Source of the DNA: a bacterium
GTDB lineage: Bacteria > Chloroflexota > Dormibacteria > Aeolococcales > Bog-877
Reading direction: 5' to 3'
Assembly: GCA_021785655.1 (NCBI GenBank)
Contig: JAJYET010000004.1
Coordinates: forward strand, 8,907-72,906
DNA length: 64,000 bases
A program made the translations under genes and the position numbers. Within the stretch, counting starts at the first letter, position 1, and each line of letters opens with the position of its first letter. Below, in pieces: positions 30,373 through 47,804 of this stretch. The notes beneath the pieces are model-generated. The model did no database searches and was not told the origin of the DNA. It was given only the letters and a program-made list of their open reading frames with translations.

Positions 30373-30408
30373 CCGCTTTTTCCGGGTTTCAAAAGGGATT
30401 TCGGGCCC

Positions 30409-30437: not shown

Positions 30438-30526
30438 GGCCCAAATATTGACATGGGTACCGCTCTGGAGCAGAGGCTTTGACTTGAAAGCGGCTGCAGG
30501 CAGAGCGGACCTTGAAGGAGCCTCCG

Positions 30527-31480: not shown

Positions 31481-31594
31481 CGGCAGGGTGCTCTCCTGAC
31501 CCCCGGTCCGCCGTCCCGAGCGCCCCGGGACCGTCACCCTGCGTGGGAGCCACGGCAGGACGGGTCAAGGCACGCCGCATCCCGGTCGGATCCC

Positions 31595-31843
31595 TCAGCT
31601 CTTCGGGGCCGGTCGCCTCGGAGCATGGAAAGCTGGCAGGATCTCGTCCACACCGGAGACCGGGGGGGCCGCCGCGAGGGCGACCGCGATCTTCCGCAAC
31701 GTGTTGGGACTCACCGGCCGTCCAGCTGTCGCCGTGGTGACGGTGGCAGCACTGACACCAGCGGCCCGGGCAAGGTCCACATTGTTCCAACCTCTGCGGG
31801 CAATCTCAAACCTCAAGCGGTCGGCCGCCAGGATCACGCTCAC
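31595..31843 (-). CDS. XRE-family helix-turn-helix regulator (possible excision/immunity regulator)
   Basis: 82 aa; WNNVDLARAAGVSAATVTTATAGRPVSPNTLRKIA HTH; 4-nt overlap with upstream Rep-like ORF. Confidence 0.55.
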   Translation of the reverse strand: MSVILAADRLRFEIARRGWNNVDLARAAGVSAATVTTATAGRPVSPNTLRKIAVALAAAPPVSGVDEILPAFHAPRRPAPKS

Positions 31844-33065
31844 GGCCGGTCCAGCCCAGTGGGCTCGAACCCCGAGTTTCGAGGCTCAGTTCCTTTCCCG
31901 GCACTTCCCGTGTCGAGTAGACCCCGGCCAGCGGCCGTGGAGGCGGCCACCTCCATCCTCTGGCGGCCCTTGCGGTCGACGGTCTCGCTGAAGGTCGCAC
32001 CCCGCCGCTCCAGATAGTCGTAGACCCCGCGCACGGTGCGCCCCAGCGCGGCGCCGAGGCCGTGAGCGGCGCCCATCGCGGGCAGTCTGGAGACGCAGCC
32101 GACCAGCCCCCGGATGATCAGCAGCTCGTCCGTGGAGCGGACCAGGTCCCGCACCAGCGGAGACGCGGGCGAACCGATCTCCGCCTCCCGGATCACCTGC
32201 CACTCCCGGGCCCCCGGCCAGCGGGAACGGTGGGAGTCCGAGGTCGGAACCTCGAGCGAGACCCACTGGGTCGTGCAGCGCCACAGCTCCCGGCGCGCCT
32301 CCAGCGCCTCGGCCGGAGAGGAGTCTCCCAGTGACACCAGGGAGCGGCGGCGGAACTGGAACTCCACCCGCCAGACCGGCTGCTCCCGGTCCCAACCCTT
32401 CCAGATCGCCTTTGGCCACTCCCCTCCCCACCCCCTGAGCTCCAGGGTCTTGACGTAGCAGCGGGCCATCACGGCAACGCCACCGAAGACGAAGCCGCTC
32501 GGTCGGCGGCCCCGGAGATGGGCCCGTGCATAGATCGGCACCATGCAGGTGCGGCGGCGGACCGCGCGGCAGTGGAAGTGTCGAAGTCTTCGACAGCCGG
32601 AAACCAGCCCTGGGTGTCGCGGTACAGGTCCAGTCGCGAGATCCCGGGGAGAGGCTCATCTCGCATCACGTTTGCGGCCAGCCGCTCCGAGATTTCAGCC
32701 ACGGCGTCATCCACCCCCTGGGAGTGGAGGGAGGCGGAGTGGGTCTGGATGAAGACCGGCGGGAAGGGGGACGGCGCCCCGATCGCCACCTCCATGTTGG
32801 GAGAGCTGGCCCAGAACGGATAGCTCCGCCAGCCGTGGGGGTGCAGGGCTACCGAGAGGCACTGCTCGCCCCAGGGGACCACCTGGAACTCGTTGGTGCG
32901 CTGAGACTCCTCCTTGAGCGCCTCGAGGAAGACCAGCAGACCGTCCTGCAGCTCCCCACGGACGGAGCAGGGGAGCGTGTCCACCCCGGCGGCCGGAATC
33001 CTCAGGTCTGCCGCCACGATCGATCCGAGAGCCCGTCTGAGGTGGAGTGTGTATTTTCCCACCAC
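31840..33065 (-). pseudogene. replication initiator protein, RepSA-like (putative HUH/rolling-circle type), split across two frames
   Basis: N-terminal frame 32469..33065 (..LHPHGW..) and C-terminal frame 31840..32544 (..CYVKTLELRGWGGEW..WRVEFQF..YDYLERRG); frame change in overlap ~32470-32545. Confidence 0.4.
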
Positions 33066-34377
33066 TGTGTGACAGGCACTCGTGGTGGGAGAGGGCCTTG
33101 CCGCTCCACCTGGCGAGGGGCATCTGGTGGCTCCCCTCCAGGGAGCATTCCACCGCCTGGAACTCCTCCAGGGTCTCCTCCCGCCAGATGGCCCGCGGGG
33201 AATGGGGCGGGAGGAGAGCGGCCCTGTCGCTGTCCAGGCAGATGTGGCTGTTCACGGCGGCCCGGACCCGGAAGGCGACCGCGCCCTGGAGATGGGCCTT
33301 CAGCTGCCCCGGCATCGCCTCGGCATCCTGGCGCTGGGTGCAGCAGACGAGGTGGACCCCCACCGACCGCCCCAGCCTGGCGACCTCCCCGAGCCGCCCG
33401 CTGGCCGCCTGCTGGGCGGCGCGGTCGGCCCGGTCGTCGCCCAGGTCGAGACAGGTCAGCTCCGCCACCTCGTCCACCGCGACCGGCAGCCGGGGCCAGC
33501 TCGGCGGGGAAGCCGGTCTCTCCGAGGAAGCAGCCTCCCGCACCTCCCGGAGCCGCCGGTCCACCTCCTGCCGGACCCGCCCCAGAGTGTCGGCCGCCGC
33601 CAGGAGGCCGTCCGCCAGGGGGTAGATGGCGTGAGGTAGGCCCCTGAAAGGGGCGAGCTCCACCCCACCTTCGAGGTCGATGACGGCCACCTGGAGGTCC
33701 TCCGGTTCGTGCTCCCGGCAGAGGACGGTGAGCACCTGCCGTAGGAAGACAGGCTTGCCCCCTCCGGTCATCCCGCCCGCCAAGAGGTGGGGGCGGGCGT
33801 TCAGGTCCACCCAGAAGGATCCCCGGCGCCCTCTGCCGAGGCCGATGAGGAACCTCTCCGGCGGCCGGGGCGAGCTGTACATCTCCCGGTACGCGAGGTG
33901 GTACGGGATGCGGTGCCGCAGCACCTCGGTCACCAGGCCCCCGCGCTCCTCACACACCCGCAGCGAACACTCACTGCGGGCCTCCAGGGGCTCCTGCCGC
34001 TGCGGGACGTCCCACAGGGTGACCACGGGCGGCACCCGCCAACGCAGGGTCACGGTGCGCCGCTGCCACCTCGCGTTTGGCCGCGCTCCCGGCGCCACCA
34101 CCCGGCCCCTCCGGTCCACACCCACAACGCCGCACTCCACCATCGCCCGGCGCAGTCTGGCCGCCGGGGACCTGCCCCTCCCGTCGACCGTGAGAAGCGC
34201 TGCGGCCGAGGCCGCGATGAGGGTCCCGCACGATGAGGCACCTTCGCCCCAGTGCAGTTCGGATGCCGCGACCGGGTCGGCCACCAGTACCCAGTCGGCC
34301 GGCTGCCCGAGGAGCCACGTCCCGACGGCCCCGGGATCCGATAGGGCCCTGGGGTCGGCCAGGTACCTGCCGCCCAT
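32707..34377 (-). CDS. traB: FtsK/SpoIIIE-family DNA translocase TraB/TraSA-like; 3' end uncertain
   Basis: Walker A GMTGGGKPVF, Walker B-like VAVDEVAEL, ..HLVCCTQR; ATG 34377 overlaps stop of upstream small ORF (TGATG); recognisable domain ends near 33120, remainder low-complexity read-through. Confidence 0.65.
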   Translation of the reverse strand: MGGRYLADPRALSDPGAVGTWLLGQPADWVLVADPVAASELHWGEGASSCGTLIAASAAALLTVDGRGRSPAARLRRAMVECGVVGVDRRGRVVAPGARPNARWQRRTVTLRWRVPPVVTLWDVPQRQEPLEARSECSLRVCEERGGLVTEVLRHRIPYHLAYREMYSSPRPPERFLIGLGRGRRGSFWVDLNARPHLLAGGMTGGGKPVFLRQVLTVLCREHEPEDLQVAVIDLEGGVELAPFRGLPHAIYPLADGLLAAADTLGRVRQEVDRRLREVREAASSERPASPPSWPRLPVAVDEVAELTCLDLGDDRADRAAQQAASGRLGEVARLGRSVGVHLVCCTQRQDAEAMPGQLKAHLQGAVAFRVRAAVNSHICLDSDRAALLPPHSPRAIWREETLEEFQAVECSLEGSHQMPLARWSGKALSHHECLSHSGGKIHTPPQTGSRIDRGGRPEDSGRRGGHAPLLRPWGAAGRSAGLPRGAQGGVSAHQRVPGGPLGRAVPLGSPAPPRLAELSVLGQLSQHGGGDRGAVPLPAGLHPDPLRLPPLPGGG

Positions 34378-34622
34378 CAGAACGAGGAGGCCGCCGGGGC
34401 CGGATGTGAAGCACGCAGCGGCGGGCTCGGGCTCCCCTCCGCGATGAAGCCCGAGATCAGCCAGATGGCGAGGAGCAGCGCCAGCAGGACCCAGCAGCCG
34501 ATGCGTCCCCCCGGGGTACCCCGGAGGAGGGAGCGGAGGACCGCCAGCACGACCATGACGCTGAACAGGACGGCGGCCGCCACCACCACGAAGGTGAGGA
34601 TCGCCCCCAGGACGCCGGTCAC
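34377..34622 (-). CDS. small two-TM membrane protein (Spd-like spread protein candidate)
   Basis: 81 aa, two hydrophobic helices; translationally coupled between the SSB-like ORF and traB. Confidence 0.35.
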   Translation of the reverse strand: MTGVLGAILTFVVVAAAVLFSVMVVLAVLRSLLRGTPGGRIGCWVLLALLLAIWLISGFIAEGSPSPPLRASHPAPAASSF

Positions 34623-34985
34623 TTCCGGGCCCTTGCCTGGGTCTCAGTGGCACCCTCCTTCCGGAGAGGCGAGAGGTACGTGATGTGGTCCGCCACCACT
34701 ACCAGGCGAAGCTGGCCTCCCCCCTCCGTGCCTTCCGGGTTGTAGAAGATGCCGCGGAGCCGGCCGGTCACCGCGACCCTTGAGCCCTTGCCAATAAAGC
34801 GCACCCGGTTCCTCGCCTGGCCCCCCGGGCCTCGACCCGACCCAGTCCGGCTCCTGGGTGCGGTCCCGCCGACACACCGCGCAGAGGGCGCTCTCCTTCA
34901 CCTGCGGGTCCGGCTCCCCTGCCGTGAGGAACTCCTGGACCCGAACCTCAGAGGCGACCACCCCGATCAGCTCGACGTGGGTCAT
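34619..34985 (-). pseudogene. small SSB-like OB-fold protein split over two frames
   Basis: frame A MTHVELIGVVASEVRV..ALCAVCRR; frame B ..GSRVAVTGRLRGIFYNPEGTEGGGQLRLVVVADHITYL resembles SSB L45/beta strands; frame change ~34800. Confidence 0.35.
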
Positions 34986-35185
34986 CGCCCCACCTCCCGC
35001 TCCCCCACCTGCCGCTCTGGCCCTCCCAGCCCTCGGGCGGGCGTCCTCCCGGCATCACCGCCCACCAGGGCAGGTGGCACATCTCCTGGCCCCCGTTGTC
35101 TTCGTCCTCATGCTTATCGCCCCGAGGTCTCCGCAGGTCCTTTGACATCTCTCACCTTCTGTGCTGGCGGTGCTCCGGCCCGGGT

Positions 35186-35195
35186 GGACCGGTCC
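35186..35195 (+). promoter_or_regulatory. perfect 10-bp palindrome GGACCGGTCC upstream of the ssb-traB-rep operon (candidate KorSA operator)
   Basis: located in the 325-bp gap between korSA 3' end and the transfer operon start. Confidence 0.25.
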
Positions 35196-35309
35196 AGATT
35201 AGCAGGTCCGCAAGGGATGTCAAGAGGTGGCGCGGACCACTTTTGGAGGCTGCGGGGAGCTACTAGGAGGAGATCTGCCCCGAGGGGCCGGGGGGTCAGG
35301 GGATGGTTC

Positions 35310-36101
35310 TCAATACCCCTCTGGCACCCGGGGGAAGACCAGGGTGGTCATGTCGCCCGGAAGGTGGCTCTCGATCACCGCCACCACCTGCTCCTGTTCC
35401 CGCATCACCCGGTACAGCTGCAGCACCGGCACCCCGTCCGGTAGCGCCAGCAGCGCCTTCAGGTGGGAAGTCGGCATGGAGGCCTCTACCACGTCCTCCC
35501 CCTCCTCCCCTGGCAGCCCCCTGAACTTGAGCAGGTCCGGGAGCCAGAAGCCGGTCAGCTCCTCTTCCCGGATCCCCGCCTCCTCCTCCGCCACCGGGTG
35601 AAGCCACACCCGGGCCAGGATCGGGGCCCCGGTGACGTCGATCCCGGTACCCTCCTGGACCAGCACCACCGTGCCTGGAGCCACCTGGAGAAGCTCCCCC
35701 ACCCAAGGGGTGACCGGGATCCTCCGAGTGAGGTCCCCCAGCAGCCCCTGAATCTTGAAGGCGCGCCCGGTGGAGGGATCAGCTGCCGGCTCCTCAACCG
35801 GCCCGACCTGCGGCCGGGCGGTGCCCACCGCCCGGGCTTGCACCCTCTGGCGCTCAGCCTTGGGGTCGCGGACGAAGCTCCCGGAGCCGTGCTCGGACGC
35901 CACCCTCCCTTCCTGCTTCAGCACCCCCAACGCGCTGCGCACCGTGGAACGGGTCACGTGGTACCTCGCCATGAGCTTGCGCTCAGAGGGGAAGGCCACC
36001 CCCGGCGGCAGACGTCCCTCCTCGATCTCGAGCCGGAGGGCCGCCGCCAGCTGCTGGTACAGAGGATCAGAGCTGTCTCGGTCCAAGCAGTACGTCGCCA
36101 T
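35310..36101 (-). CDS. korSA: GntR-family (HutC/UTRA subfamily) transcriptional repressor, KorSA-like
   Basis: N-terminal wHTH (SERKLMARYHVTRSTVRSALGVLKQEGRV) and UTRA effector domain. Confidence 0.8.
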   Translation of the reverse strand: MATYCLDRDSSDPLYQQLAAALRLEIEEGRLPPGVAFPSERKLMARYHVTRSTVRSALGVLKQEGRVASEHGSGSFVRDPKAERQRVQARAVGTARPQVGPVEEPAADPSTGRAFKIQGLLGDLTRRIPVTPWVGELLQVAPGTVVLVQEGTGIDVTGAPILARVWLHPVAEEEAGIREEELTGFWLPDLLKFRGLPGEEGEDVVEASMPTSHLKALLALPDGVPVLQLYRVMREQEQVVAVIESHLPGDMTTLVFPRVPEGY

Positions 36102-36254
36102 AGGTGCAGCTTATTTGGTCCGGACCAGTCTTGCAACTTTCCGCTCTTGGAGCACCGCCGGGGACCTGGCGGAGCGAACCGGGGAAGGGGTTGGGATGAA
36201 TCTCCCCAGGCGCCGGCTTAGGATCGCCGACGTCCCACGGTCGTCCTCCGGCTT

Positions 36255-37412
36255 CTAGTGGTCCGGCGGCCAAATAGGTGAAGCCCATAAGCTGGCAGTA
36301 TGAAGATGATGCCAGCGGCGGAACCTTTGCCGGTGACCAGGGAAGACCGGGCGGCGTTGGAGAGGCTCGCGAAGTCGACTTCGCGGAGTCACCGAGCGGT
36401 GCTGCAAGCGCGAGGACTGCTGTTGGCTAGCGAAGGGGTGGCCAACTACGAGATCGCTCGGCGCGTGGGCGTGTGCTCCAACACAGTCCGGAGTTGGCGG
36501 CGGAGCTTTCCACAACGGGGTGTGGCGGGGGTGGGAGTGATTCGCCCCGGTCGGGGCCGCAAGCCGTGGCTGCCCGAGGGGACGGTGGCGGAGGTGGTGC
36601 GATTGACGCAGCAAGAACTGCCGGCTGATGGCTCCACCCACTGGACCACTCGGAGCTTGGCCCGACGAGTGGGGATCGGCAAGGACAGTGTGGGGCAGAT
36701 CTGGAAGGACCACGACCTCAAGCCGTGGAAGGTGGAGACCTTCAAGATCTCCAATGATCCTGCCTTCGAAGAGAAGCTGGTGGACGTGGTGGGGCTGTAC
36801 CTGAACCCGCCCGAGCGCGCTGTGGTGTTCAGCGTCGACGAGAAGACCCAGTGCCAAGCCCTGGACCGGACCCAGCCAGGACTGCCCATGCGGCCGGGCC
36901 GAGCGGGAACCATGACCCACGACTACAAGCGCAACGGCACCACCGACCTGTATGCGGCCCTCAACATCGCCACCGGGCAAATGCTGACCGACTGTCGGGA
37001 TCGACACACCGCCAAGGACTTCGTGCGCTTCCTGCGGATCATTGACCGCAACGTGCCGGTCCAGTTGGACGTGCACCTGGTCTTGGACAACCTCTCCGCG
37101 CACAAAGCCCCCGAGGTGCAGGCCTGGTTGGCACATCCGCAGCGACGTCGCTTTCACCTCCACTTCACGCCGACCAGCTCCAGCTGGGTCAATCTGGTCG
37201 AGCGCTGGTTCAAAGAGCTGACCGACAAACGCCCGCGGCGCGGCACCTTCAGCAACGTGCCCGCCCTCATCGACGCCATCAAACTCTGGGTGTCCCACTG
37301 GAACGACAACCCCCAGCCTTTTGTATGGCACACACCCGCGGACGAGATCATCGCCAAGGTCCGCAGGGGCCGCGCTGCACTAGCCCAACTTAATTCACCG
37401 ACGGACCACTAG
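36255..37412 (+). mobile_element. IS630-family insertion sequence, copy 1
   Basis: imperfect terminal inverted repeats CTAGTGGTCCGGCGG.. / ..CCGACGGACCACTAG; TA target duplication; single transposase ORF filling element. Confidence 0.75.
36300..37412 (+). CDS. IS630-family DDE transposase
   Basis: 370 aa; N-terminal HTH, DDE core (..VFSVDEKTQCQALDR.., ..VHLVLDNLSAHK.., ..YSSWVNLVERWF). Confidence 0.85.
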   Translation: MKMMPAAEPLPVTREDRAALERLAKSTSRSHRAVLQARGLLLASEGVANYEIARRVGVCSNTVRSWRRSFPQRGVAGVGVIRPGRGRKPWLPEGTVAEVVRLTQQELPADGSTHWTTRSLARRVGIGKDSVGQIWKDHDLKPWKVETFKISNDPAFEEKLVDVVGLYLNPPERAVVFSVDEKTQCQALDRTQPGLPMRPGRAGTMTHDYKRNGTTDLYAALNIATGQMLTDCRDRHTAKDFVRFLRIIDRNVPVQLDVHLVLDNLSAHKAPEVQAWLAHPQRRRFHLHFTPTSSSWVNLVERWFKELTDKRPRRGTFSNVPALIDAIKLWVSHWNDNPQPFVWHTPADEIIAKVRRGRAALAQLNSPTDH

Positions 37413-39937
37413 AGCCTGGGGTCGACCGGCTCGCTCTCCAGTGCGAGGATTCCGAAGACGCACTCGTGAACCCGGTGCAGGCCTTCTGATCGGACGAACC
37501 TCTCTAAGGCCTCGATCCCCAGGGCAAACTCGCGAACCGCCAGCGAGCGCTTGAGCCCGAGCGAGCGTTCCCGGAGCCGGCTGAGGTTGGCGGGCAGCGT
37601 GTACTCGGGACCGTAGATGATGCGGAGGTACTCCGGTCCGCGGCACTTGACGGCGGGCTGGAGCAGCCCTCGGCGGCCCGTCGCCACAAAGGGCAGGGGT
37701 TTCACCACCATGCCCTCTGCGCCCCTCTGAACCAGGTCCTCCCACCAGCGGATCGCGGTCCGCTCGCTGACCGGGTCGGTGAGGTCAACCGAGGCGTGGG
37801 CAGTGGCGACGATGACGGAATCGGCGTCCGACGCCAGGCGGGCCAGGGTGGCCATGTGCCACACATGGTCTCGATCTGCATGCACCACCGCCCCGCTGGC
37901 GAGGAGGTGGAACGGAGCGATCCGCAGATCGTCGACGGACTTCACGTCCCAGCAGTAGCGGCGATAGGCATCCCGGTACCCGCTAATGAGCCGGGCTCTG
38001 GCCTGGGTGCGATCGGCCAAGTCGCCGACGTCGACTCCGCGCGCACGCGCAGCGTCGAGGGCTGGCAGCGCCGCCGCGAACGCCTGCTCCGCGGCCGAAG
38101 CTACTGCGGAGTACTGGCTGACCAAGAGCTCTCCTGCCTTGACCGACCAGGGCATCACCTCCATGTCGAGGGCAGCCCAGTCGCTAGCGAGCTCGTCCCA
38201 GAGGCCGGCCCGGTCCAGAGCGTTGCGCAGCCGCTCTAGAACAGCCGCCTCAAAGGCGCGGTCGGCGAAGAACCTCCGGCCGGTCCGTGTGTACACGATC
38301 CCCCCCGCGTCACTGGCGATGTGAAACCGGCGCTCGATCGCGCCCGGATCACGGCCCGCGATGGCGACGGCGCGCGACCCCATGTGCTTCTCTTGGCACA
38401 CAACCTGTTCCACCCCGCCGCGACGGAAATAGTCAAAGGCCTCGGCGGGGTGCTCGAGCAGGCCCTCGTTCGCGGTCGTTGCCGGGGGAGACATGGTGGG
38501 CGGCAGATAGACGATCCAGCGAGGATCGACGGCGAAGCGGCTCACGGCCTCGAGGGCAGCAGCGGCGTTCTCGTCGGGGATCGTGACGTTGCCCACGAGG
38601 CGCGTGGTGATCGTCCGCCGTCCCAGGACGTCCGCGGCGTACAGGGCTAGGCTGTCACGCTCGCTGGGAGCCTGAGCAGCCGACAGCGGCCGGGTGGGCT
38701 GGTAGTACATGCGCGCGGCGGGTACCTCGACGAGCTCCCGCTCGGGGTAACGTAGGGCGGTGAGCCGACCGCCAAAGACGCAGCCCGTGTCGATGCAGAT
38801 CGTGTTGTTCAGCCACTCGGCAGCGGGTACGGGCGTATGACCGTAGACCACCATGGCGGCACCACGGTAGTCGGCGGCCCAGTTGTAGCGAACGGGAAGC
38901 CCGAACTCATCGGTCTCCCCGGTCGTCTCCCCATAGAGGGCGAATTCCCGAACCCGGCGGGAGGCGCGTCCCTGGAGCCTCTCGGCCATCCCAGCGTGAG
39001 CGACCACCAGCCGTCCGTCATCAAGAACCAAGTGGCTTACCAGCGTGTCGATGAAGGAGGCGACCTCCTGGCGGAACTCGAACGGCTCGGCTTCTAGCTG
39101 CGCCAGCGATTCGGCCAGGCCGTGGCTCACCGTCACTTGCCGCCCTTGGAGGGCGCGCATCAGCTTGATGTCGTGATTGCCGGGGACGCAGAGTGCGCTG
39201 CCGGTCCGAGTCATGGCCATAACGGTGCGGAGGACCCCGGGGGTCGAGGGGCCGCGATCGACCAGGTCGCCGAGGAAGATGACCTTCCGTCCCTCCGGAT
39301 GGCTGTACCCGCCGTCGGCCGGCTGATAGCCGAGACGGCCGAGGAGGGCGACCAGCTCCTCATGGCAGCCATGGACGTCCCCGATCACATCGAATGGCCC
39401 GTGCCAGTCGCGGCGGTCGGTCCAGAGCCGCTGGCGCTCGACGACCGCGGCATCGACCTCCTCTTGGGAGCGGAGGATGGTCACATAACGGAAGCCCTCG
39501 CGCTGCAGATCCCGTGCCGACCGGTGGAGCTGGAAGATCTGGTTGCGGACCACGTGGGGCCCCAGATTCCGGTCCGGGCGCTCGCGCGAGCGCTGCTGAA
39601 GAACCGACTCCTGGAGATCGAAGACGATCGCCACCGCGAGTACGTCGTTGTCACGAGCGAGCTCGACCAGCGGACGGCGCGCTTCCTTCTGGACGTTGGT
39701 CGCGTCGATGACCGCGAGGCGCCTTAGACCGAGCCTCGCCGAGGCGACGGCGTGCATCACCGCGAAGGCCGGCTGGTTGACGTCGAGGGCATTCTCGTCG
39801 TCGGCCACCATGGCCCTGCAGGCGTCGGAGGAGATAACCTCGGTGGGGAGGAAGTGCTTGCGGGCGAAGCTGGACTTGCCCGAGGAGGTCGCGCCGACCA
39901 GTACCACGAGGGAGAGCTCAGGGATGGTGATGGTCAT
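37409..39937 (-). CDS. pnkp: polynucleotide kinase-phosphatase Pnkp (kinase/phosphatase/ligase)
   Basis: P-loop GATSSGKSS, calcineurin-like GDVHGC..GNHD phosphoesterase, C-terminal adenylyltransferase/ligase domain; 842 aa; 4-nt overlap with hen1. Confidence 0.85.
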   Translation of the reverse strand: MTITIPELSLVVLVGATSSGKSSFARKHFLPTEVISSDACRAMVADDENALDVNQPAFAVMHAVASARLGLRRLAVIDATNVQKEARRPLVELARDNDVLAVAIVFDLQESVLQQRSRERPDRNLGPHVVRNQIFQLHRSARDLQREGFRYVTILRSQEEVDAAVVERQRLWTDRRDWHGPFDVIGDVHGCHEELVALLGRLGYQPADGGYSHPEGRKVIFLGDLVDRGPSTPGVLRTVMAMTRTGSALCVPGNHDIKLMRALQGRQVTVSHGLAESLAQLEAEPFEFRQEVASFIDTLVSHLVLDDGRLVVAHAGMAERLQGRASRRVREFALYGETTGETDEFGLPVRYNWAADYRGAAMVVYGHTPVPAAEWLNNTICIDTGCVFGGRLTALRYPERELVEVPAARMYYQPTRPLSAAQAPSERDSLALYAADVLGRRTITTRLVGNVTIPDENAAAALEAVSRFAVDPRWIVYLPPTMSPPATTANEGLLEHPAEAFDYFRRGGVEQVVCQEKHMGSRAVAIAGRDPGAIERRFHIASDAGGIVYTRTGRRFFADRAFEAAVLERLRNALDRAGLWDELASDWAALDMEVMPWSVKAGELLVSQYSAVASAAEQAFAAALPALDAARARGVDVGDLADRTQARARLISGYRDAYRRYCWDVKSVDDLRIAPFHLLASGAVVHADRDHVWHMATLARLASDADSVIVATAHASVDLTDPVSERTAIRWWEDLVQRGAEGMVVKPLPFVATGRRGLLQPAVKCRGPEYLRIIYGPEYTLPANLSRLRERSLGLKRSLAVREFALGIEALERFVRSEGLHRVHECVFGILALESEPVDPRL

Positions 39938-41382
39938 CGCTGGAAGACGGCCATCTGGGTAGGGGGCCCGAGTCGATCGTCAGCGTCACCGATGGGACGG
40001 AACGACACCGAGTATCCAAAGCGGGACGCAGCCGATTCGGCCCAGGCGTGGAACTCGGAGCGGGTCCACTCGAATCGGTGGTCCGGATGACGAGTTCGCC
40101 GGGGTCCGAGGGTCGGGAACAGCTGGTTGTATTCCGCGTTCGGGGTGGTCACGACCACGGTGGATGGTCGAGCGTGGCCCAGCACCGAGGCGCTGAAGGC
40201 TTCCAGGCGATCTAGATCCAGGTGCTCGATGACCTCGACCGCCACGGCGGCATCCCAGCCCGTGAGCCGTTCGTCGCGGTAGGTGAGCGAGCCGTGCACG
40301 AGCGAGAGGCGCTCGCGCTGGCGTGGGGCCAGGGAGTTGAGGTGGAGCTTCCGTGCCGCCCTTTCCAGGGCTCGCACCGAGACGTCCACACCGAGGATGC
40401 GGGTGAACCTCGGGTCGGCAAGGAGCAGTTCGATGAGGTGCCCCTCGCCGCAGCCGAGATCAGCGACCGTGGACGCACCCGCTTGGCGGATCGTCTCGAC
40501 CACGGCCTGGAGCCGTTGCTGGTTGAGGTTCAATGGGCGCTCCAGTCCCGCCTCGAGAGCGTCGCCCCGATTGACCCGCGCCTCCGGGTCGATGTCGTCC
40601 TCCTCGGTGAGACGACGCAGCGCCTCCCGGGTGAGGCCGCGCTGGTCGCGCAGGTACCGCCTCACAATCAGCTCGCGTTCCGGGTGCGTCCCCAGCCACT
40701 CCCCCGCTCGTTGCAGGAGCTTGTCCACCTCGGCGTCTCCCACCCAGTAGTGCTTCTCGCCGTCGAGGGCTGGGATGAGGACGGTGAGATGAGTGAGTAG
40801 ATCCGCGAGCCGGAGCGTGCCACGGAGCGTCGTTCGGTGGTACCGGGATAGGCCCCAGGCTGGGAAGCTGCTGTCGAGGAGCTCAGAAGCAACGTCGACC
40901 GTATACCCGAGCGGCTCGAAGAGCCGGTGCACTAGGTCCTTGCCTCCCTCCGACGGCAGTGCGGCGATGGTCGCCTCTAGGGGGATGGCCTGAGCCGCGA
41001 GCTCCGGCCGGTCGGTCGAGCGCCCGCTCCGGGCCGACGCGAACGCCTTGCCGAGTGCCACCGAGAGGAGGGACGTCGCGGCGTACGGGCGGTCGTTGAC
41101 GTAGTGGTCCACCCCGCCGGCTGCCGGGGTCCGCGACCCACGGCCTCGCCGCCGCACCAGGTCGATCGGGTCGATCTCGAGGAGGAGGGCGACGGTGCAG
41201 CGCTCGGCGGTCGCCTCCGGGTAGAAGACGTGGGCCACTCCGCCGAACACGTCGAACGTGTTGACGCGAGCTGGGTTCTTGTGGAGCAGGAATCCGAGAT
41301 CGGTGGCCGGCAGGTGGGTCGTGGTAACGGTCAAGAACATGAGGCCCGAAGTCTCGCATACCGAGCGGGGCCGTCTGGCCAC
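39934..41382 (-). CDS. hen1: 3'-terminal RNA ribose 2'-O-methyltransferase Hen1
   Basis: 482 aa; SAM-binding motif VADLGCGEG, ..VEVIEHLD..; N-terminal Hen1-specific domain; operon partner of pnkp. Confidence 0.85.
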   Translation of the reverse strand: MARRPRSVCETSGLMFLTVTTTHLPATDLGFLLHKNPARVNTFDVFGGVAHVFYPEATAERCTVALLLEIDPIDLVRRRGRGSRTPAAGGVDHYVNDRPYAATSLLSVALGKAFASARSGRSTDRPELAAQAIPLEATIAALPSEGGKDLVHRLFEPLGYTVDVASELLDSSFPAWGLSRYHRTTLRGTLRLADLLTHLTVLIPALDGEKHYWVGDAEVDKLLQRAGEWLGTHPERELIVRRYLRDQRGLTREALRRLTEEDDIDPEARVNRGDALEAGLERPLNLNQQRLQAVVETIRQAGASTVADLGCGEGHLIELLLADPRFTRILGVDVSVRALERAARKLHLNSLAPRQRERLSLVHGSLTYRDERLTGWDAAVAVEVIEHLDLDRLEAFSASVLGHARPSTVVVTTPNAEYNQLFPTLGPRRTRHPDHRFEWTRSEFHAWAESAASRFGYSVSFRPIGDADDRLGPPTQMAVFQR

Positions 41383-41665
41383 AAAGGGCTGGGAACGGCC
41401 TGAGCACCGTTGCCCCAGGGACGACTACCGGAAGACCGCGGCGGTGACACCTTGCCTGACACCTTCCCGTCCCGCACGAGACGAGTTTTCGCCTGTCAAC
41501 GGCCATCCGAGGTCGGCCGGAACTCAGCACCGTCGGGGTCGCGGAATCCAACCTCGGACGACTCGGACGCCCCTGGCACCCACGGACACCGACCGAGGCA
41601 ATTTGCGGACCCGCCTCTTCGCTTCCGTTGATCCGGGGTGGGGTAAGCCTCAGCCCGATCTGATG

Positions 41666-42754
41666 CTAGTGTCCTGCTTCCGAAGTAGCTACGCAAGAGC
41701 GAGCGATGCTGGCGAGGATCTGGTCGGCGGTCTTGACCCAGGTGAAGGGCTTGGGGTGCTCGTTGTTGGCCTTGAGGTAGACGCGGATTGCGTCCTCCAG
41801 AGCGCGCACGCTCTGGTGTGAACCCCGTCGGACCTGGCGCTCCGTGAGCAGTCCGAACCAGCGCTCCACCTGGTTGATCCAGGACGAATAGGTCGGGGTG
41901 AAGTGCAGCTGAAACCGGGGATGGAGCAACAGCCAACGATGGACCGAACGAGTCTTGTGGGTGCCGTAGTTGTCGAGTACCAGATGAACGCCGAGGTCGG
42001 CGGGGACCTCGGCGTCGATGCGCTGCAGAAAGCTGAGGAACTCGGTACTGCGATGGCGCCGGTGAAGGTCGCCGATCACCCTGCCGGTGCCGATGTCCAG
42101 GGCGGCGAACAAGGTGGTGGTCCCGTGGCGGTGGTAGTCATGGGTCTGGCGCTCGGGGAGCCCGGGCCGCATGGGCAGCAGCGGCTGGGTACGGTCCAGC
42201 GCCTGAATCTGGCTCTTCTCGTCGACGCAGAGGACCAGCGCCGCCTCCGGGGGGTGCAGGTACAGGCCCACGATGTCCCGCACCTTCTCCACCAGCTGCG
42301 GATCGTTGGAGAGCTTGAAGCTCTCGCTGCGGTGCGGCTGCAGACCGAAGGCATGCCAGATGCGCAGCACGCTGGTGTCGCTCAGCCCACTGGCTTCGGC
42401 CATACTCCTGGTGGTCCAGTCGGTGGCGTTGGCCGGCTTGGTCTCCAGAGTTCGCACCACCACCTGCTCCACCTGCTCGTCGGTGATTCGCCGAGGGGCC
42501 CCACACCGGGGCTCGTCCAGAAGACCCGCCAGCCCCCGGCCGATGTACCGCTTTCGCCACTTCCCCACCGTGGCAGCGCTCACCCGCAGCTGGGCCGCCA
42601 CATCCCGGTTGCTGACCCCGTCGGCGCAGCGCAGTACGATGTCCGCCCGGCGCGCCAGCCCGTTTGAGGTGGTCCTGCGCCGCCGCCACCGCAGGAGATG
42701 CTCCCGGTCCTCCGGGCTGACCAGCAGGTCGGGTTTGGGACGGCCACGGAGCAT
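41666..42754 (-). CDS. IS630-family DDE transposase
   Basis: 362 aa; same architecture and conserved blocks as 36300..37412. Confidence 0.85.
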
Positions 42755-42826
42755 GATCTGGCCCTCATTGTGAGGCCTCCAACGACCGCTCCATTATAAC
42801 CAGTATCTTCAGAAGCAAGACGCTAG
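41666..42826 (-). mobile_element. IS630-family insertion sequence, copy 2 (diverged paralogue)
   Basis: terminal inverted repeats CTAGTGTCCTGCTTCCGAAGTAGCT / AGTATCTTCAGAAGCAAGACGCTAG. Confidence 0.75.
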
Positions 42827-43220
42827 CGGCCTAGTAGCGAATTGATTGCGCCTCTCCTGGAGCTGTCGTACCCCGTTTGCGGTACCAGCTGAGCTGGACC
42901 CGGGCCAGGGGGTCCGGTCACTCACGCCAAGTCTGGGTCGGAACCTGCCAGTCGGCCCGGGATGGGGTCCTGCCTGCCAGACGTGGCGCAAGCGCCTCCC
43001 GGATCTCCTCAAGTGTGAGTCCCACCTGCTGGGCGGCGGCCATCAAGGCGAGCCGTCGCAGAGTAGCTCGAGCGAACCGGCGCTGTGTTGGTGGCACCAC
43101 TGGGTGAGGCAGTAGGAAGGGGGAAACGGCAGAGCTACTCGAGGCTGGCGGGGACGGGAACGGCTGGCCGCAGTACTGAAGCTGCCGCTACCCCGGGGGG
43201 CCATGTGTACCGTATAGTTG

Positions 43221-43249
43221 TCTTCTTGTTGTACTTCTGCTATGGTGCG
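43221..43249 (+). promoter_or_regulatory. candidate promoter (TTGTCT-17-TATGGT) and TGTAC repeats upstream of XRE operon
   Basis: AT-richer 190-bp intergenic; TGTAC direct repeats at ~43203 and ~43229. Confidence 0.25.
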
Positions 43250-43292
43250 TAAGACCAGTGTGGAAAGGCCGCGATGAAGGGGTAGGACTGGC

Positions 43293-43571
43293 GTGAAGCA
43301 GACTTCGCTTCATAACCGGGTCGCGGTTCTGCGCACCGAGCACGGACTGAGCCGGCACGAACTGGCCGAGGCGGTGGGCGTCAACTACCAGACCATCGGC
43401 TACATCGAACGTGGCGAATACAGCCCCAGCCTGGACCTGGCCTTCCGCCTGGCTGAGGTATTCGAACTCCCGATCGAAGCGATTTTCTCGCGGCGACCCA
43501 TGAGGCCGATGAGCCAGCAGCTCTTCGCCCCGGATCGGGCGCCGGCCGTGGGGCCTGGGACCGAGAGGTGA
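43293..43571 (+). CDS. XRE-family HTH transcriptional regulator (YozG-like)
   Basis: LRTEHGLSRHELAEAVGVNYQTIGYIERGEYSPSLDLAFRLAEVFELPIEAIF; stop overlaps GTG of next gene (GTGA). Confidence 0.7.
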   Translation: MKQTSLHNRVAVLRTEHGLSRHELAEAVGVNYQTIGYIERGEYSPSLDLAFRLAEVFELPIEAIFSRRPMRPMSQQLFAPDRAPAVGPGTER

Positions 43572-44638
43572 CCAGCACCACGACCCGTCTAACTCGCTAC
43601 CGCCGCCCCGACTTCCTGGTCGGAGCTGTGCTTGCCCTTTACGCCGTGATTATCGCGACCTTGACCTTCGCACTTCCGGGACGGTGGCAGGCGTACAAGG
43701 TCTACCTGGTCTTCGTCGCGGTGACCATTCTGGCGGTCAGGCTGGTCCCCGTCGAGCCAGGGTCCCTACTTCGGCGCCGGGTGGCGCGGCGGACTCTGGT
43801 CGGAGTTATCGTCGGAGTCTGTCTGCTGATGGTGGTCGTCGGAAGTGGCCTGGGCTACTACCTGTGGCTCGGGATCCTCTGCCTGGTTTTCTGCGACGTG
43901 CTGTTGGGGCGGGCCACCCAGCGGATTGCCACTGCCCCTGACGACCATGTCGATGAGTGGCAGGAGTCGCTGCGCAACCGGGCCCATCGCACTGCGTACT
44001 GGGTCATCGCGGCGTCCTTTGTGGTGTTGTTCTTCAGCACCTATGTGGCCACCGAGCAGACGAGGGCATGGCTGTTCCAGGGCCGTGGAGGAGGGCTTTG
44101 GATCGTCTCCGCTGAACTGCTCTTCTGCCTACCCGCCATGGTGATCGCCTGGGGCCAGTCGGACCCTGTCTCCGAGTTTCTATCCCCACCGCGGCACCTG
44201 GCGTGGCTGCGACGGGCGACCGTTGCGATGGTGAGCGCATCACTGCTGGCGCCGGTGCTGGCCAGTCTCGCACTGCCCGTACTGCCAATCACAACCCAGT
44301 CCTCCGTCCGGCCGAGCCAAGGCCGGTGTCTGAACTTCAGAGCGACGGAGACCGTCGGGATCCTAGTCGAGGCTCAGTTGCCTCTCGCGGCTCTGGCCTG
44401 TTGGAACGGGCGGCGCGCGGTCGAAATGTATGGGATGAACCGGAGTGACTGCGTGCAGGCCGACACCCAGCTAGCCACAACAGAGACCATCGCATGCCGG
44501 CGCATGGTCTCCACGACTGGGACGCTGCGCTTCGTCTACACCGCCAGAGTTGGCTCTCCGTTCTTGCCCTTCATGGCAAGGGTTGTGACCCTCCGAGTGA
44601 CGCTCACGCGTACCGGCAGGGTGCTGCAGTTCCCGTGA
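43568..44638 (+). CDS. polytopic membrane protein (7 predicted TM) with Cys-containing C-terminal domain, paralogue A
   Basis: 356 aa; cytoplasmic-loop motif DEWQESLRNRAHRTAYWVI; C-terminal ~110 aa with CWNGRRAV..C..C; GTG start overlapping XRE stop. Confidence 0.5.
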   Translation: MTSTTTRLTRYRRPDFLVGAVLALYAVIIATLTFALPGRWQAYKVYLVFVAVTILAVRLVPVEPGSLLRRRVARRTLVGVIVGVCLLMVVVGSGLGYYLWLGILCLVFCDVLLGRATQRIATAPDDHVDEWQESLRNRAHRTAYWVIAASFVVLFFSTYVATEQTRAWLFQGRGGGLWIVSAELLFCLPAMVIAWGQSDPVSEFLSPPRHLAWLRRATVAMVSASLLAPVLASLALPVLPITTQSSVRPSQGRCLNFRATETVGILVEAQLPLAALACWNGRRAVEMYGMNRSDCVQADTQLATTETIACRRMVSTTGTLRFVYTARVGSPFLPFMARVVTLRVTLTRTGRVLQFP

Positions 44639-45627
44639 ACGTTGTCAGACCGGTGAGGACCTGGAAAGGTCGCCGCCGAGGGCACCTTCGGAGAGCTTGC
44701 GTGGTCATAGCGGGGGCGCTGTGGCTCCTCCTAGCCTCTCCCGTACCGGAGTCATTGAGCGGGTGGGGGATAGCTGTGGTGCTCACGATTGTCGCCATCG
44801 TCCTGGCCCTGGGGGCTGGCACCGGATGGATTGCCTTCCAGCGAGCAGATCGAGTCGATGAGTTCAGTCGGGAGCTGCGAGATCGTGCCTACCGGCTCGC
44901 GTTCAGGTTCTTCGTGTTGGGAGTGCTCCTCCTGGCTCTTGCGTGGTTCGTGAGCCAAGTGCTCCATGGGCAGATCACTTGGGCGGTCCCCGACCCGGTA
45001 GGCGCCAGACGCATGGCGGCGCTACTGGTTCTGTTGGCCACGCTGCCGACTGCGATGACGGTCTGGATGGCTCCCGCTGCAGGGGATGACCCCCGGGCTG
45101 CGGGCTCGCCAGCGCGGGCCGGCCGACTCACTTGGCGTTGGCTGCCCTTGATTTCCGTCCCAGCGCTGTTCACGGTGTGGTTGTCCGGCGTGGCCCTCAT
45201 GCCGGTAAGTGGGGCGACCCTGGTCACCCTGCCAGATCCCGGGTTCGCTATGACAAATGGACATTGCGGTGCATTCGCGGCCACGCAGCAGGTGGCGCGC
45301 GGCTTTGGCCCGACAGTCCGACTCCTCGCCCAGGTGTGCTGGAATGGTCGGGAAGCGTGGGTGATCAACGACCCCGGAGCGCCGACACCTCGCTACTTCG
45401 GACCTTTGTCGTCAGGCGTGGAGCCGACCCTCTGTTCTCCCGCCAACGACGGTACCGACTTCGGAGTGGTCAGGCGAGTGGGCTGCCGAGTGTGGATCAA
45501 TGGGGCGGGAACTGTCCACGTGCGCCTTAGGGCCCAGGCGGGGTCTGGTCTGCTGAGCATCGGGCGGAAATGGATCCAGATCACCTTGGTGGTGACCAGG
45601 AGCGGTCGAGTTCTGATATTTACGTGA
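44635..45627 (+). CDS. polytopic membrane protein, paralogue B
   Basis: shares DEFSRELRDRAYRLAF loop motif, CWNGREAW and terminal ..TRSGRVLIFT with paralogue A; probable GTG start 44635 overlapping stop of paralogue A (GTGA). Confidence 0.5.
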   Translation: MNVVRPVRTWKGRRRGHLRRACVVIAGALWLLLASPVPESLSGWGIAVVLTIVAIVLALGAGTGWIAFQRADRVDEFSRELRDRAYRLAFRFFVLGVLLLALAWFVSQVLHGQITWAVPDPVGARRMAALLVLLATLPTAMTVWMAPAAGDDPRAAGSPARAGRLTWRWLPLISVPALFTVWLSGVALMPVSGATLVTLPDPGFAMTNGHCGAFAATQQVARGFGPTVRLLAQVCWNGREAWVINDPGAPTPRYFGPLSSGVEPTLCSPANDGTDFGVVRRVGCRVWINGAGTVHVRLRAQAGSGLLSIGRKWIQITLVVTRSGRVLIFT

Positions 45628-45829
45628 GAGGACGGCCTGGGCACTGAAGCCCGGAAGTCGATGTCCCCCAACGTGGCTTGGTGCCGCAGCTTGGCCGCCT
45701 TGAGCCGGGTCGCCAGCCGCCGGCTCTCCCCCCAGCTCATCTCCCGGTCCTCAGGCAGCCCGATGCAGTCCTCGAAGGGCAGCTCCAGGCCCTGGGTCTG
45801 CTCCAGCTGCTCCCGCAGCGCCGGAACGG

Positions 45830-46100
45830 CTGCTGTTGGCGAATCGAGCTCGCGCGCCGTGCCTGGGGCCAGGCCGAGCTATCGCGTGCTGCTCGTCTCC
45901 GAGCCCCGGCTGTGCGAGTCGGCTCTCTCGGGCGGGCCGATCGCTCCCAGGACGCTCCGGAAGATAGCCATGGCGCTGGCGACGGCTCCAACGCTGGCCG
46001 CTCTCGATTCGATCCTTCCGCCAGTGCGTGGAGTGGCGAAGGACCGCGACGGCGCCAGGCCGGAGGTTCGTCCCACTTTGATTCCGTACCGGCGTCCAGC
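45830..46100 (+). pseudogene. frameshifted remnant of an XRE-like regulator gene (paralogue of 31595..31843)
   Basis: ..WRIELARRAWGQAELSRAARL.. in one frame and ..TLRKIAMALATAPTLAALDSILPP.. in another; compare LRFEIARRGWNNVDLARAAG / TLRKIAVALAAAPPVSGVDEILPA. Confidence 0.35.
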
Positions 46101-46344
46101 GCTCTCAGTCGCCGATACTCGAAGCTGCCCGCAGAACTGACGCTCGCTCCTGATCGTGTACAGCGTCATCAAGGCATAGCTCTCCAGCAACGGCTTCGGG
46201 GGGCGGGGGGCGCCCAACTGCGCCTACAGTTCTTGAAGGGACAGTTCCAGTTGCCAAGGTGCCGCCTCTGCCAGCGGCTTCATTCTGCGGATCGGGTAGT
46301 TCGCCGGAATCACCGCAGTCGGGCGTTCAAGCGGGTAGCGCTAT

Positions 46345-46356
46345 CCCCCCCCCCCC
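46345..46356 (+). repeat. homopolymeric C12 tract abutting transposon inverted repeat
   Basis: cccccccccccc directly followed by tggag and the left IR. Confidence 0.8.
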
Positions 46357-46409
46357 CTGGAGTCAAACTTGGGTAATAATAGACTTGACGCACGCCGGAT
46401 AGGGGTGCC

Positions 46410-47375
46410 ATGATCTCCACGGCATGGGAAGTTGGCGGCGTGATGGGACGGCTGAGCCGGGTGGTACACCCGTGGTCGAGCCGTGAGCGACTGTTCGCCA
46501 TGCTTGAACTGACCGCCTTTTCGGACGAGAGCTACACGGAGCACGAGGTTTATTGCGTCGCGGGCTACTGGGCAAGCGCGCGTGCATGGTCCCACTTTGA
46601 TGACCAGTGGAAACAAGAACTAGCGCGTTGCGGCCTCTCGGAGTTCCACGCGGAAGACTGTGAGCAAGGCCATGGAGAATATGCCAATAGGAAGGACCGC
46701 GCGAAGCTACGCGCAAGATTCACCAAGATTGTGAACGCCAATATGCTTCACGGGGTTTTCGCTTGCATTGACCTTCGTGGCTGGGACGACATTGCCGACG
46801 AAGTTGCCTACCTGCGTCCCGACGCGAGAGATCCGTTCTACATCCCCTTCCAGATGTTCCTGGAAGGCGCTACTAAAGAGGTTGACTGCTTTGCCCCCAA
46901 CGAACGCCTCGCGGTAGTCTTCGACGACCGCGAGGGTGCTGGCAAAGTGGTTGAGCTTTACAACTCGCTTAGGCGCGATGCGGACCCGGCCTTCAAAGTT
47001 TTGAACGCTCGTCTCGGGAGTGCGGTGTCTGGGGCGTCTAGTGAATATGCCGGTCTCCAGGCCGCCGATCTCCTGGCGTATGAGGCGCGACTCTATGTAA
47101 GCGGTCCAATCTGGGGAGTGCGCGGGTCCGAGCGGCGCCCAGCGTGGGAGCCGTTGTCTTCTAAGCTTCGCCACGGCAGCGTGATTACTCGCGAGCAGAT
47201 GCCGGCCCTAGCCCGGCAAATGCGCGTGAAGGGCGGCGAGGGTGCTATGCGTCGGGCGGCTGTTCTGGCGGCTCGGAAGGCCGACCGCGATGCCCATGGG
47301 GCCGTCTATCGCGCTCGTACTTCTCCCGCTGCTCCGCAATCTCCTGAGCCGGGACGGCCAGAAGAGACCGCATAA
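46410..47375 (+). CDS. DUF3800-family protein (cargo gene; C-terminal tail possibly read-through)
   Basis: FSDESYTEH (DES motif) and EYAGLQAADLLAYE (QxxD motif); low-GC codon usage (ttt, aaa, gaa). Confidence 0.55.
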   Translation: MISTAWEVGGVMGRLSRVVHPWSSRERLFAMLELTAFSDESYTEHEVYCVAGYWASARAWSHFDDQWKQELARCGLSEFHAEDCEQGHGEYANRKDRAKLRARFTKIVNANMLHGVFACIDLRGWDDIADEVAYLRPDARDPFYIPFQMFLEGATKEVDCFAPNERLAVVFDDREGAGKVVELYNSLRRDADPAFKVLNARLGSAVSGASSEYAGLQAADLLAYEARLYVSGPIWGVRGSERRPAWEPLSSKLRHGSVITREQMPALARQMRVKGGEGAMRRAAVLAARKADRDAHGAVYRARTSPAAPQSPEPGRPEETA

Positions 47376-47422
47376 AACGGTCGAGGGGTGTCTGCGCCCG
47401 CTTGCTCTCATCGGTCATTGCC

Positions 47423-47528
47423 AGCACCTACGATAGCGGGTCCATCCAAACGGTGACATCAGGAAGGGGATTGCCAGCACCTACGATAGCGGGTCCATCC
47501 AAACGGTGACATCAGGAAGGGGATTGCC
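47423..47528 (+). repeat. perfect tandem duplication, 2 x 53 bp
   Basis: agcacctacgatagcgggtccatccaaacggtgacatcaggaaggggattgcc twice; ends 3 nt before ATG 47532. Confidence 0.9.
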
Positions 47529-47771
47529 TAAATGCATTCGAACGAATCGGCAGGACTTGCACACGGCCATAGCGATCGACATGTCAGCGCGGACGGCATT
47601 CCCCTCCGCCCCCCGCTCAGCACGGACGAAGACCGGCTCGAGGACAAAGTGCCAATCGTCGACCCCGCATATCGGGCACTCTTGTCGTCCGAGGCGTTTG
47701 TCAAGGCCGTCGAAGAAATCTGCGACCGTCGGTGGTTCCGCCGGGGCCCCCTCGTCCCGTTCTGATGTCAT
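47481..47771 (-). CDS. hypothetical zinc-ribbon protein downstream of IS1595 transposase (alternative: plus-strand ORF 47532..47765)
   Basis: 96 aa; CPICG ... CKSC; 33-nt gap after transposase stop, same strand; C-terminal codons lie in the tandem repeat. Confidence 0.3.
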   Translation of the reverse strand: MTSERDEGAPAEPPTVADFFDGLDKRLGRQECPICGVDDWHFVLEPVFVRAERGAEGNAVRADMSIAMAVCKSCRFVRMHLGNPLPDVTVWMDPLS

Positions 47772-47804
47772 GCCTAAGCCCTCCTGCCGCGCCCCTGCCG
47801 CTTC

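Follow-up and report, generated by a model that had tools for sequence, protein, structure and literature searches.

An intact hen1-pnkp RNA-repair operon in a probably decaying, AICE-like tRNA-Val island of Candidatus Dormiibacterota

Introduction

The polynucleotide kinase-phosphatase-ligase Pnkp heals RNA ends that carry a 2',3'-cyclic phosphate and a 5'-OH, and Hen1 adds a 2'-O-methyl group at the 3' end and activates the ligase of Pnkp; once sealed, the methylated junction resists re-cutting by the same ribotoxin, and resistance to re-cleavage by colicin D has been shown (PMC4411300). Related genes have been described from a jumbo phage, with PNKP and a Hen1-like gene, and from Borg elements, with Pnkp1-Rnl-Hen1 (PMC5852040, PMC11208441). 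Among integrated elements, integrative and conjugative elements of actinomycetes (AICEs) have a tra-rep-xis-int layout beside their attachment (att) site (PMC3218068; PMC2440964) and were found only in Actinomycetales by Ghinet et al. (PMC3218068). Here, a hen1-pnkp operon is examined in a 64-kb stretch of metagenomic DNA (contig JAJYET010000004.1 of assembly GCA_021785655.1, positions 8,907 to 72,906; hereafter the window, with coordinates counted from its first letter), where it lies in a 19.5-kb island inserted at a tRNA-Val gene. The locus is probably best read as a decaying, AICE-like island of Candidatus Dormiibacterota that has retained an intact hen1-pnkp cargo and that later received insertions of unrelated insertion sequences (ISs).

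The hen1-pnkp Operon and Its Island

The two genes are adjacent on the minus strand, in the order hen1 then pnkp, and overlap by 4 nucleotides (nt), ATGA. The intact pnkp gene (37409-39937, minus strand) encodes an 842-amino-acid (aa) protein that matches TIGR04075 over its full length (profile positions 1-851 of 851, 1335 bits) and contains an N-terminal AAA_33 kinase, a central Metallophos, and a C-terminal PNKP_ligase domain. It has PDB matches to all three solved domains of C. thermocellum Pnkp, with the KHMG motif of the ligase and the ...VDPRL end conserved. The likewise intact hen1 gene (39934-41340, minus strand) encodes an RNA 3'-terminal 2'-O-methyltransferase with an N-terminal Pnkp-ligase-activating domain; its open reading frame (ORF) extends over 39934-41382, with a likely start at 41340 that yields 468 aa. 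Hen1 matches TIGR04074 over its full length (profile positions 1-462 of 462), comprises Hen1_L and methyltransferase domains, and aligns with PDB entries 4DQZ (N-terminal domain) and 3JWH (methyltransferase), with the DLGCG, EVIEH, and HRFEW motifs aligned and conserved. The domains of both proteins thus align with solved C. thermocellum and Anabaena structures, and the pair is predicted by homology to heal, methylate, and seal ribotoxin-cleaved RNA. A scan of 35200-43400 for sigma-70 promoters returned no promoter-like site, and a terminator scan of the same interval returned one terminator-like match, inside pnkp, fewer than in shuffled sequences.

The island (30312-49892) is delimited by 61-nt direct repeats (repeat family D2) derived from tRNA-Val(GAC), the integration target (30292-30368, plus strand; identified by ARAGORN and Rfam). 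The attL copy (30312-30372) covers the tRNA gene's 3' end and the attR copy stands at 49832-49892; they consist of the last 57 nt of the tRNA gene and 4 nt downstream and are identical at 59 of 61 positions (97%). Between the repeats, G+C drops from ~0.71 to 0.62-0.68. In three relatives that lack the island (L099 and L100, with 89% nt identity in the flanking genes, and L097, with 76%), homology ends at the tRNA gene's 3' end, and these empty sites match both att copies. Next to attL, a gene on the plus strand (30512-31480) encodes a XerC/XerA-like tyrosine recombinase (Phage_integrase, E=1.9e-31), whose matches to NCBIfam Xer-type models fall below the cut-offs. An initial annotation made from the sequence alone had proposed the identity of both genes, their ATGA overlap, and their carriage on a mobile island, and all three proposals were borne out.

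The host belongs to Candidatus Dormiibacterota and is not an actinomycete; homologs of the threonyl-tRNA synthetase (ThrRS) and of the FtsK-like protein of the island, where source names are given, come mostly from Candidatus Dormibacteraeota/Dormiibacterota. PDB matches of RuvB gave no information on this point.

Decay of the Backbone and Retention of the Cargo

Searching with the island's FtsK-like gene uncovered a sister locus (L084 in ENA; L085 in GCA_028068535.1) at the same thrS/tRNA-Val site, with 97-98% nt identity to the window. The sister has hen1-pnkp at the same place and neither of the two IS630-family elements that flank the operon in the window. Compared with the sister, the window lacks a single nucleotide at four sites, each in the backbone of the element: one in the rep gene (32580), one in the 3' end of the FtsK gene (33091), one in the SSB gene (34821), and one at 35264. 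The first of these deletions splits a gene for a protein of the Rep_trans fold (31840-33065, minus strand), and a tblastn search with the 392-aa protein of the sister accordingly recovers two pieces in different frames. The second lies in a gene for an ATPase with an FtsK_SpoIIIE domain (Pfam), a putative DNA translocase (32707-34377, minus strand), where it replaces the last ~30 aa and lengthens the ORF to 32707. This protein is 91% identical to a homolog (P0001) over 428 aa and divergent thereafter, the extended 556-aa form also occurs in 2 ENA contigs (P0072), and the NCBIfam TraB model is matched only weakly (E=0.003), in a gene with a frameshifted 3' end. The SSB gene is a pseudogene (34625-34985, minus strand) in which the SSB of a related element (L086) aligns in two frames; it is frameshifted in window and sister alike.

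As a separate observation on the FtsK-like protein, its Walker A-like motif (33750-33800, residues ~285-300 of the long ORF) reads GMTGGGKP in both the window and P0001, with a proline after the lysine where FtsK/SpoIIIE ATPases usually have serine or threonine.

The ratio of nonsynonymous to synonymous substitution rates (dN/dS) between window and sister divides the genes of the island into two groups. Values are low for hen1 (0.18), gntR (0.21), the integrase gene (0.23), and pnkp (0.32), whereas they are 1.2 for the FtsK core and 1.0-2.3 for the rep gene. Neutrality is rejected for the cargo (binomial p=1.5e-7) but not for the transfer genes, and the two groups differ significantly (Fisher p=5e-6). 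Thus, hen1-pnkp, gntR, and the integrase gene are under purifying selection, and the frameshifted transfer and replication genes drift neutrally. The element has probably become immobilized while its RNA-repair cargo has been retained by the host. Synonymous divergence is lower in the island (0.034) than in the flanking pheST and thrS genes (0.081; p=1e-9), which suggests that the island was shared between the two hosts, or acquired by them, after they diverged.

Element Family and Cargo Slot

Four more distant loci with FtsK homologs were looked up (L086, L087, L090/L091, and L093). The shared backbone consists of gntR, a ~60-aa ORF, SSB, a ~81-aa ORF, FtsK/SpoIIIE (451-458 aa), a 367-392-aa ORF, an HTH_17 gene (xis), and int. 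The gntR gene is conserved in all members, and the region upstream of it carries variable cargo, of which hen1-pnkp is the first unit in both the window and the sister. In the other elements, this slot is occupied by SET, TIR_2, and AAA_16 genes (L086), by a C5 methylase, Eco29kI, Vsr, and an AAA_15/21 ATPase (L087), by a type I restriction-modification (R-M) system and AbiEi (L090/L091), and by two C5 methylases, McrBC, and Vsr (L093).

The 367-392-aa ORF of the backbone gave no significant Pfam match (none, or E=0.04, with a weak Rep_trans match in one orthologue), and a profile search of the PDB returned nothing. Foldseek comparison of an AlphaFold model built with 36 homologs (predicted local distance difference test score, pLDDT, 82.7) gave matches to rolling-circle initiators of the Rep_trans family, 4CIJ (E=6e-11) and 4CWC. 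As modeled, the protein is a rolling-circle-type initiator of the Rep_trans fold, and its YDK motif contains an invariant tyrosine. It forms more than 100 clusters, and all of the named ones derive from Dormiibacterota metagenome-assembled genomes (MAGs). The element family is common in Dormiibacterota, integrated at tRNA genes or elsewhere in the chromosome and carrying defense systems as cargo; among the papers searched, none connects Dormibacter with integrative conjugative elements. A broader proposition can be put forward only tentatively, namely that these elements constitute an undescribed AICE-like family, widespread in Dormiibacterota, with a cargo hotspot by the GntR gene in which Hen1-Pnkp is interchangeable with R-M, McrBC, TIR, and Abi systems, and that the pair is, in nature, a module for anti-ribotoxin immunity that is traded horizontally and that, being kept under selection, can outlive its vehicle as the transfer genes decay.

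Roles of Hen1-Pnkp

Close relatives of the hen1-pnkp pair of the window are limited to the sister island and one degraded copy. Beyond the sister group, the nearest Pnkp is 87% identical and occurs in one MAG, and the next are at most 64% identical and are spread across many phyla. The 87%-identical relative (L001 9848-12058, MAG MAS3.bin89) joins residues 1-46 of Hen1 in frame to residues 158-842 of Pnkp, without the kinase domain and most of Hen1, and its surroundings, with a tRNA-Cys gene ~380 nt away, are those of an ordinary chromosome. Full-length hen1-pnkp pairs were found on ~16 PLSDB plasmids, among them the 25.6-kb MOBQ plasmid pAMS5b of Methylobacterium sp. AMS5, where genes for a ribonuclease-domain protein and an Imm8 immunity protein are found close to the pair. 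A tblastn search of 50,697 phage records gave no match to this type of Pnkp, and neither did a pattern scan of IMG/VR, a scan of a kind that detects close relatives only. PADLOC has no model for Pnkp, matched Hen1 only as a generic methyltransferase (mad2), and returned no match for the neighboring cargo ORFs.

Hen1-Pnkp could instead serve a general function in RNA maintenance or stress, with no link to ribotoxins or conflict and with its location on the island incidental. For Anabaena, late induction of the hen1-pnkP operon as part of a general response to translational stress is described (PMC8421152), PADLOC offers no system-level match for either protein, and most of the 80 Pnkp loci that were fetched share no neighbor genes with the island. 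Against this stand the R-M, McrBC, TIR, or Abi genes in the same slot of four related elements, the patchy distribution of the pair, its carriage by plasmids, one of which has it beside ribonuclease-domain and immunity genes, and the published biochemistry on colicin D re-cleavage (PMC4411300). On balance, a purely general function is considered unlikely. The company kept in the cargo slot supports an anti-ribotoxin role for hen1-pnkp here but does not prove it.

Mobility of the Island

The initial annotation had described the carrier as a conjugative element and had suggested that RNA repair might help in surviving ribotoxins, such as tRNA anticodon nucleases, during transfer or phage infection. 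Under that proposal, the island would be a currently active conjugative element, and Hen1-Pnkp would serve the element by shielding translation from tRNA or rRNA nucleases while it establishes itself in a new host. An AICE-like arrangement of modules (FtsK/SpoIIIE, a protein of the Rep_trans fold, GntR, and an integrase) agrees with this proposal, as do the conflict genes in the cargo slot of its relatives. Recent past mobility is likewise indicated by the island having lower synonymous divergence than the flanking chromosome and by its variable presence among relatives. Yet frameshifts have hit the 3' part of the FtsK gene as well as the rep and SSB genes, the tra and rep genes have dN/dS values of about 1, the island has received three IS insertions, no xis gene was found in it, and no relaxase or type IV secretion system genes were found beyond those for the FtsK and Rep_trans proteins. 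The placement of the operon in a mobile island stands, its description as a conjugative element goes too far for this copy, and a presently active element is judged somewhat less probable still than a general role for the operon.

Insertion Sequences Flanking the Operon

IS870, an IS630-family element of Agrobacterium studied by Fournier, Paulus and Otten in 1993, reportedly needs a CTAG target to create the stop codon of its transposase gene. In the window, hen1-pnkp lies between two IS630-family elements of opposite orientation, as the initial annotation had noted. The transposases of both pass the NCBIfam model NF033545 for the IS630 family (241 and 271 bits against a cut-off of 100 bits) and have Pfam DDE_3 and HTH_29/32 domains. 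Both elements end in imperfect terminal repeats of ~24 nt, and in both the transposase ORF extends through the terminal repeat to a TAG stop composed of TA and a G of the target. No further IS630 copies were found in the window, and exact copies of either transposase were found at this locus only.

The left element (36256-37411 including the TAs, IS proper 36258-37409, plus strand) is bounded by TA at 36256-7 and 37410-1, and its transposase gene (36300-37412, plus strand) ends at the downstream side of pnkp. There, the palindrome CTAG at 37409-37412 supplies the TAG stop of the transposase on the plus strand and that of pnkp on the minus strand. Both stops are kept because the IS ends, G...C, rebuild CTAG at both junctions. 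The sister provides a natural empty site, reading ...CTTCTAGAGCCTGG... as had been predicted from the window, bar one single-nucleotide polymorphism (SNP), with CCGCCTTCTAGAGCCTGGGGTCGACC as the uninterrupted junction; there, pnkp is followed directly by a 154-nt spacer and then gntR. Pnkp homologs were fetched from species-representative genomes, and none of the 78 complete ones extends past this stop: each terminates in ...DP(R/A/T)L-stop at this same position, most of them in ...VDPRL, and the crystallized C. thermocellum Pnkp ends at this position as well. CTAG at the stop codon was seen in only 4 of 76 homologs. Given the shared end position and the empty site, the insertion left Pnkp unchanged; insertion at the TA of the pnkp stop codon without change to the protein, which the initial annotation had deduced together with the dual role of the palindrome, is thus proven by the natural empty site. 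CTAG-targeting IS630 elements can therefore land in a stop codon without cost to the gene.

The right element (41667-42825 including the TAs, IS proper 41669-42823, minus strand; transposase gene 41666-42754, minus strand) lies between CTAGs at 41666-9 and 42823-6. These stand 889 bp apart in the sister, and the IS sits in place of those 889 bp, so that a simple TA duplication is not demonstrable for it. The corresponding interval of the sister encodes a 191-aa protein without a family match and has no terminal repeats. The simplest reading would be an IS-associated deletion in the window lineage, arising either when the IS transposed within the same molecule to a CTAG close by or when two copies recombined. 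In another ENA contig (L083), 9 positions that differ from the window cluster within this IS (42192-42353), which suggests a second variant copy or strain variation.

The two elements had been taken for diverged copies of one IS630, but they are different elements: their transposases share 46% aa identity, and their terminal repeats match at 13-20 of 40 positions, i.e., they are unrelated. Both are late, independent insertions in the window lineage and do not form a composite transposon, a rejected possibility that would have had the two ISs and hen1-pnkp arrive in the island as one unit. The inverted placement of IS630-family elements on both sides of the operon is what invites that idea, which is nonetheless highly improbable: the sister has hen1-pnkp at the same position, 98.3% identical and with neither IS, so that the operon did not come in with the ISs; with 46% identity and unrelated terminal repeats, the two outer ends could not both be used by a single transposase; and each IS has its own CTAG/TA junctions. 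The bracketing that the initial annotation emphasized is therefore real in its geometry but incidental and recent.

Assembly Support

That a repeated IS mis-joined unrelated flanks in the MAG is scarcely credible and was rejected: an NCBI MAG record (GCA_027402005.1) does have a 97-N scaffold gap inside the left IS (L081 12705-12801, corresponding to a point between window positions 37234 and 37235), and L083 ends inside this IS and shows SNPs in the other, but a single 3.2-kb contig from another sample (L088) covers gntR, the left IS with both junctions, and pnkp; L082 covers the interval that starts at attR and stops no more than 92 nt short of the left IS end and, like the window, is contiguous where the MAG record has its gap; L082 and L083 both cross the junction between pnkp and the IS; both flanks are contiguous in the sister; and the logic of attL and attR ties the two halves together. 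In infC (27908-27999), 5 SNPs separate the same MAG record from the window.

Integrated Interpretation

The preferred reading, a decaying AICE-like island with a retained RNA-repair cargo and late IS insertions, can be told as a sequence of events. A tyrosine recombinase would have integrated the island into the 3' end of the chromosomal tRNA-Val gene. One IS630-family element would then have entered the CTAG formed by the last leucine codon and the TAG stop of pnkp, duplicating TA; a different member of the family would have taken the place of 889 bp, with the 191-aa ORF, upstream of hen1; and an IS1595-like element would have inserted as well, all three events falling in the window lineage only. 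The transfer and replication genes, once frameshifted, would have drifted, while purifying selection would have kept hen1-pnkp, gntR, and int. If the encoded enzymes act as their homologs do, Pnkp would heal broken ends, Hen1 would methylate the 3' end and activate the ligase, and the sealed RNA would resist the same ribotoxin.

Several points weigh against this reading. The defense-slot argument draws on four relatives without a statistical control, and the selection contrast on 60 and 95 substitutions in two lineages only. The integrase of the island is of a different type from that of other family members, and no xis gene was found in the island. There is no outgroup to fix the direction of the 889-bp difference, and the in vivo substrate and natural role of Pnkp-Hen1 are not known even in the species studied (PMC4411300). 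It should also be noted that all sequences are metagenome assemblies, in which 1-nt deletions could be assembly errors; countering this, other ENA contigs also contain the frameshifted form of FtsK, and all four deletions are found in the NCBI MAG as well.

Other Features of the Island and Window

The gntR gene (35310-36101, minus strand; dN/dS as given above) encodes a GntR/UTRA regulator of the HutC type (Pfam GntR and UTRA) and occupies the position of KorSA in AICEs. To the right of the IS630-family elements, further cargo includes an Xre-type helix-turn-helix gene (43293-43571, plus strand; Pfam HTH_3) and genes for two paralogous multi-pass membrane proteins, judged from their translations, of 356 aa (43568-44638, plus strand) and 308 aa (44701-45627, plus strand); all three genes are present in the sister too. 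The latter two ORFs had no family match in Pfam, NCBIfam, or PADLOC searches, and their candidacy as an RNase toxin was rejected, as they are multi-pass membrane proteins by sequence and lack family matches.

An IS1595-like element (46364-48810, minus strand) has 30-nt inverted repeats at its ends, a transposase gene at 47805-48758, and a passenger ORF of 321 aa with a DUF3800 domain (46410-47375). It contains a perfect 53-nt tandem duplication (47417-47522) that is present in all assemblies compared, and direct repeats of ~128 nt, ~74% identical, stand on either side of it (45985-46112 and 49216-49338).

To the right of attR, a further 5.4 kb (49893-55332) is absent from L097, one of the empty-site relatives. 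This segment contains a Phd/YefM antitoxin gene paired with one for a PIN-domain, VapC-like RNase (~50977-51985) and an MDMPI gene (54481-55149); the PIN-domain protein (51392-51985), encoded 10 kb away from the repair operon, is a candidate for an RNA-cleaving toxin. Elsewhere in the window, some housekeeping proteins have architectures that are unusual for a genome of 70% G+C: a short IF2 (594 aa; 10954-12738), a fused SecDF (855 aa; 14610-17177), and a ThrRS of 580 aa that lacks the TGS domain at its N terminus (28487-30229). These architectures gave an early indication that the host is no actinomycete.

Comparison With Known Systems

All components of the locus are of known kinds, and current understanding is not overturned. 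Attention belongs to the pattern in the cargo slot and to the element family: an operon that sits in a slot used by related elements for anti-phage defense, and that is selected while its element decays, offers a testable context for RNA repair as immunity, and AICE-like, FtsK-based elements outside Actinomycetota are indicated.

The left and right ISs resemble IS870 and other IS630-family elements in their DDE_3 transposases with N-terminal HTH domains, in their ~24-nt imperfect terminal repeats, and in combining a CTAG target and TA duplication with an ORF that runs through the terminal repeat into TA and G. Unlike in those elements, the CTAG targeted by the left IS is the leucine-stop junction of pnkp, and the palindrome serves as the stop for two convergent genes.

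Similarly, the operon has the composition of known Hen1-Pnkp systems, with hen1 preceding pnkp in a two-gene operon, a tri-domain Pnkp, a bi-domain Hen1, and a ...VDPRL C-terminus, but here it is cargo of a tRNA-integrated Dormiibacterota island. The plasmid-borne pairs of pAMS5b and of Leptospira noguchii p3_LIP1804061 are comparable, being full-length pairs on mobile replicons with IS and toxin/immunity genes nearby; they differ in residing on plasmids rather than in an integrated island, and their Pnkp proteins are 52-62% identical to that of the window.

Like AICEs, the island is integrated site-specifically at the 3' end of a tRNA gene, with att repeats and a neighboring tyrosine integrase gene, and has a GntR (KorSA-like) regulator. 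It encodes a single FtsK/SpoIIIE-domain protein, putatively for transfer, beside a predicted rolling-circle-type rep, and members of its family show the tra-rep-xis-int order. It differs from them in its host phylum, Dormiibacterota, in the predicted Rep_trans (pT181/MobT) fold of its initiator in place of the RepSA, RepAM, or Prim-Pol types of AICEs (PMC3218068), in that a Nudix/Pif gene was not found in the island, and in that the copy in the window is frameshifted. The nearest plasmid relatives of its FtsK protein are coupling-protein-like genes of Firmicutes, at ~29% identity, and integrative mobilizable elements of the type that combines MobT with an FtsK-like coupling protein are an equally close analog of this island as the AICEs.

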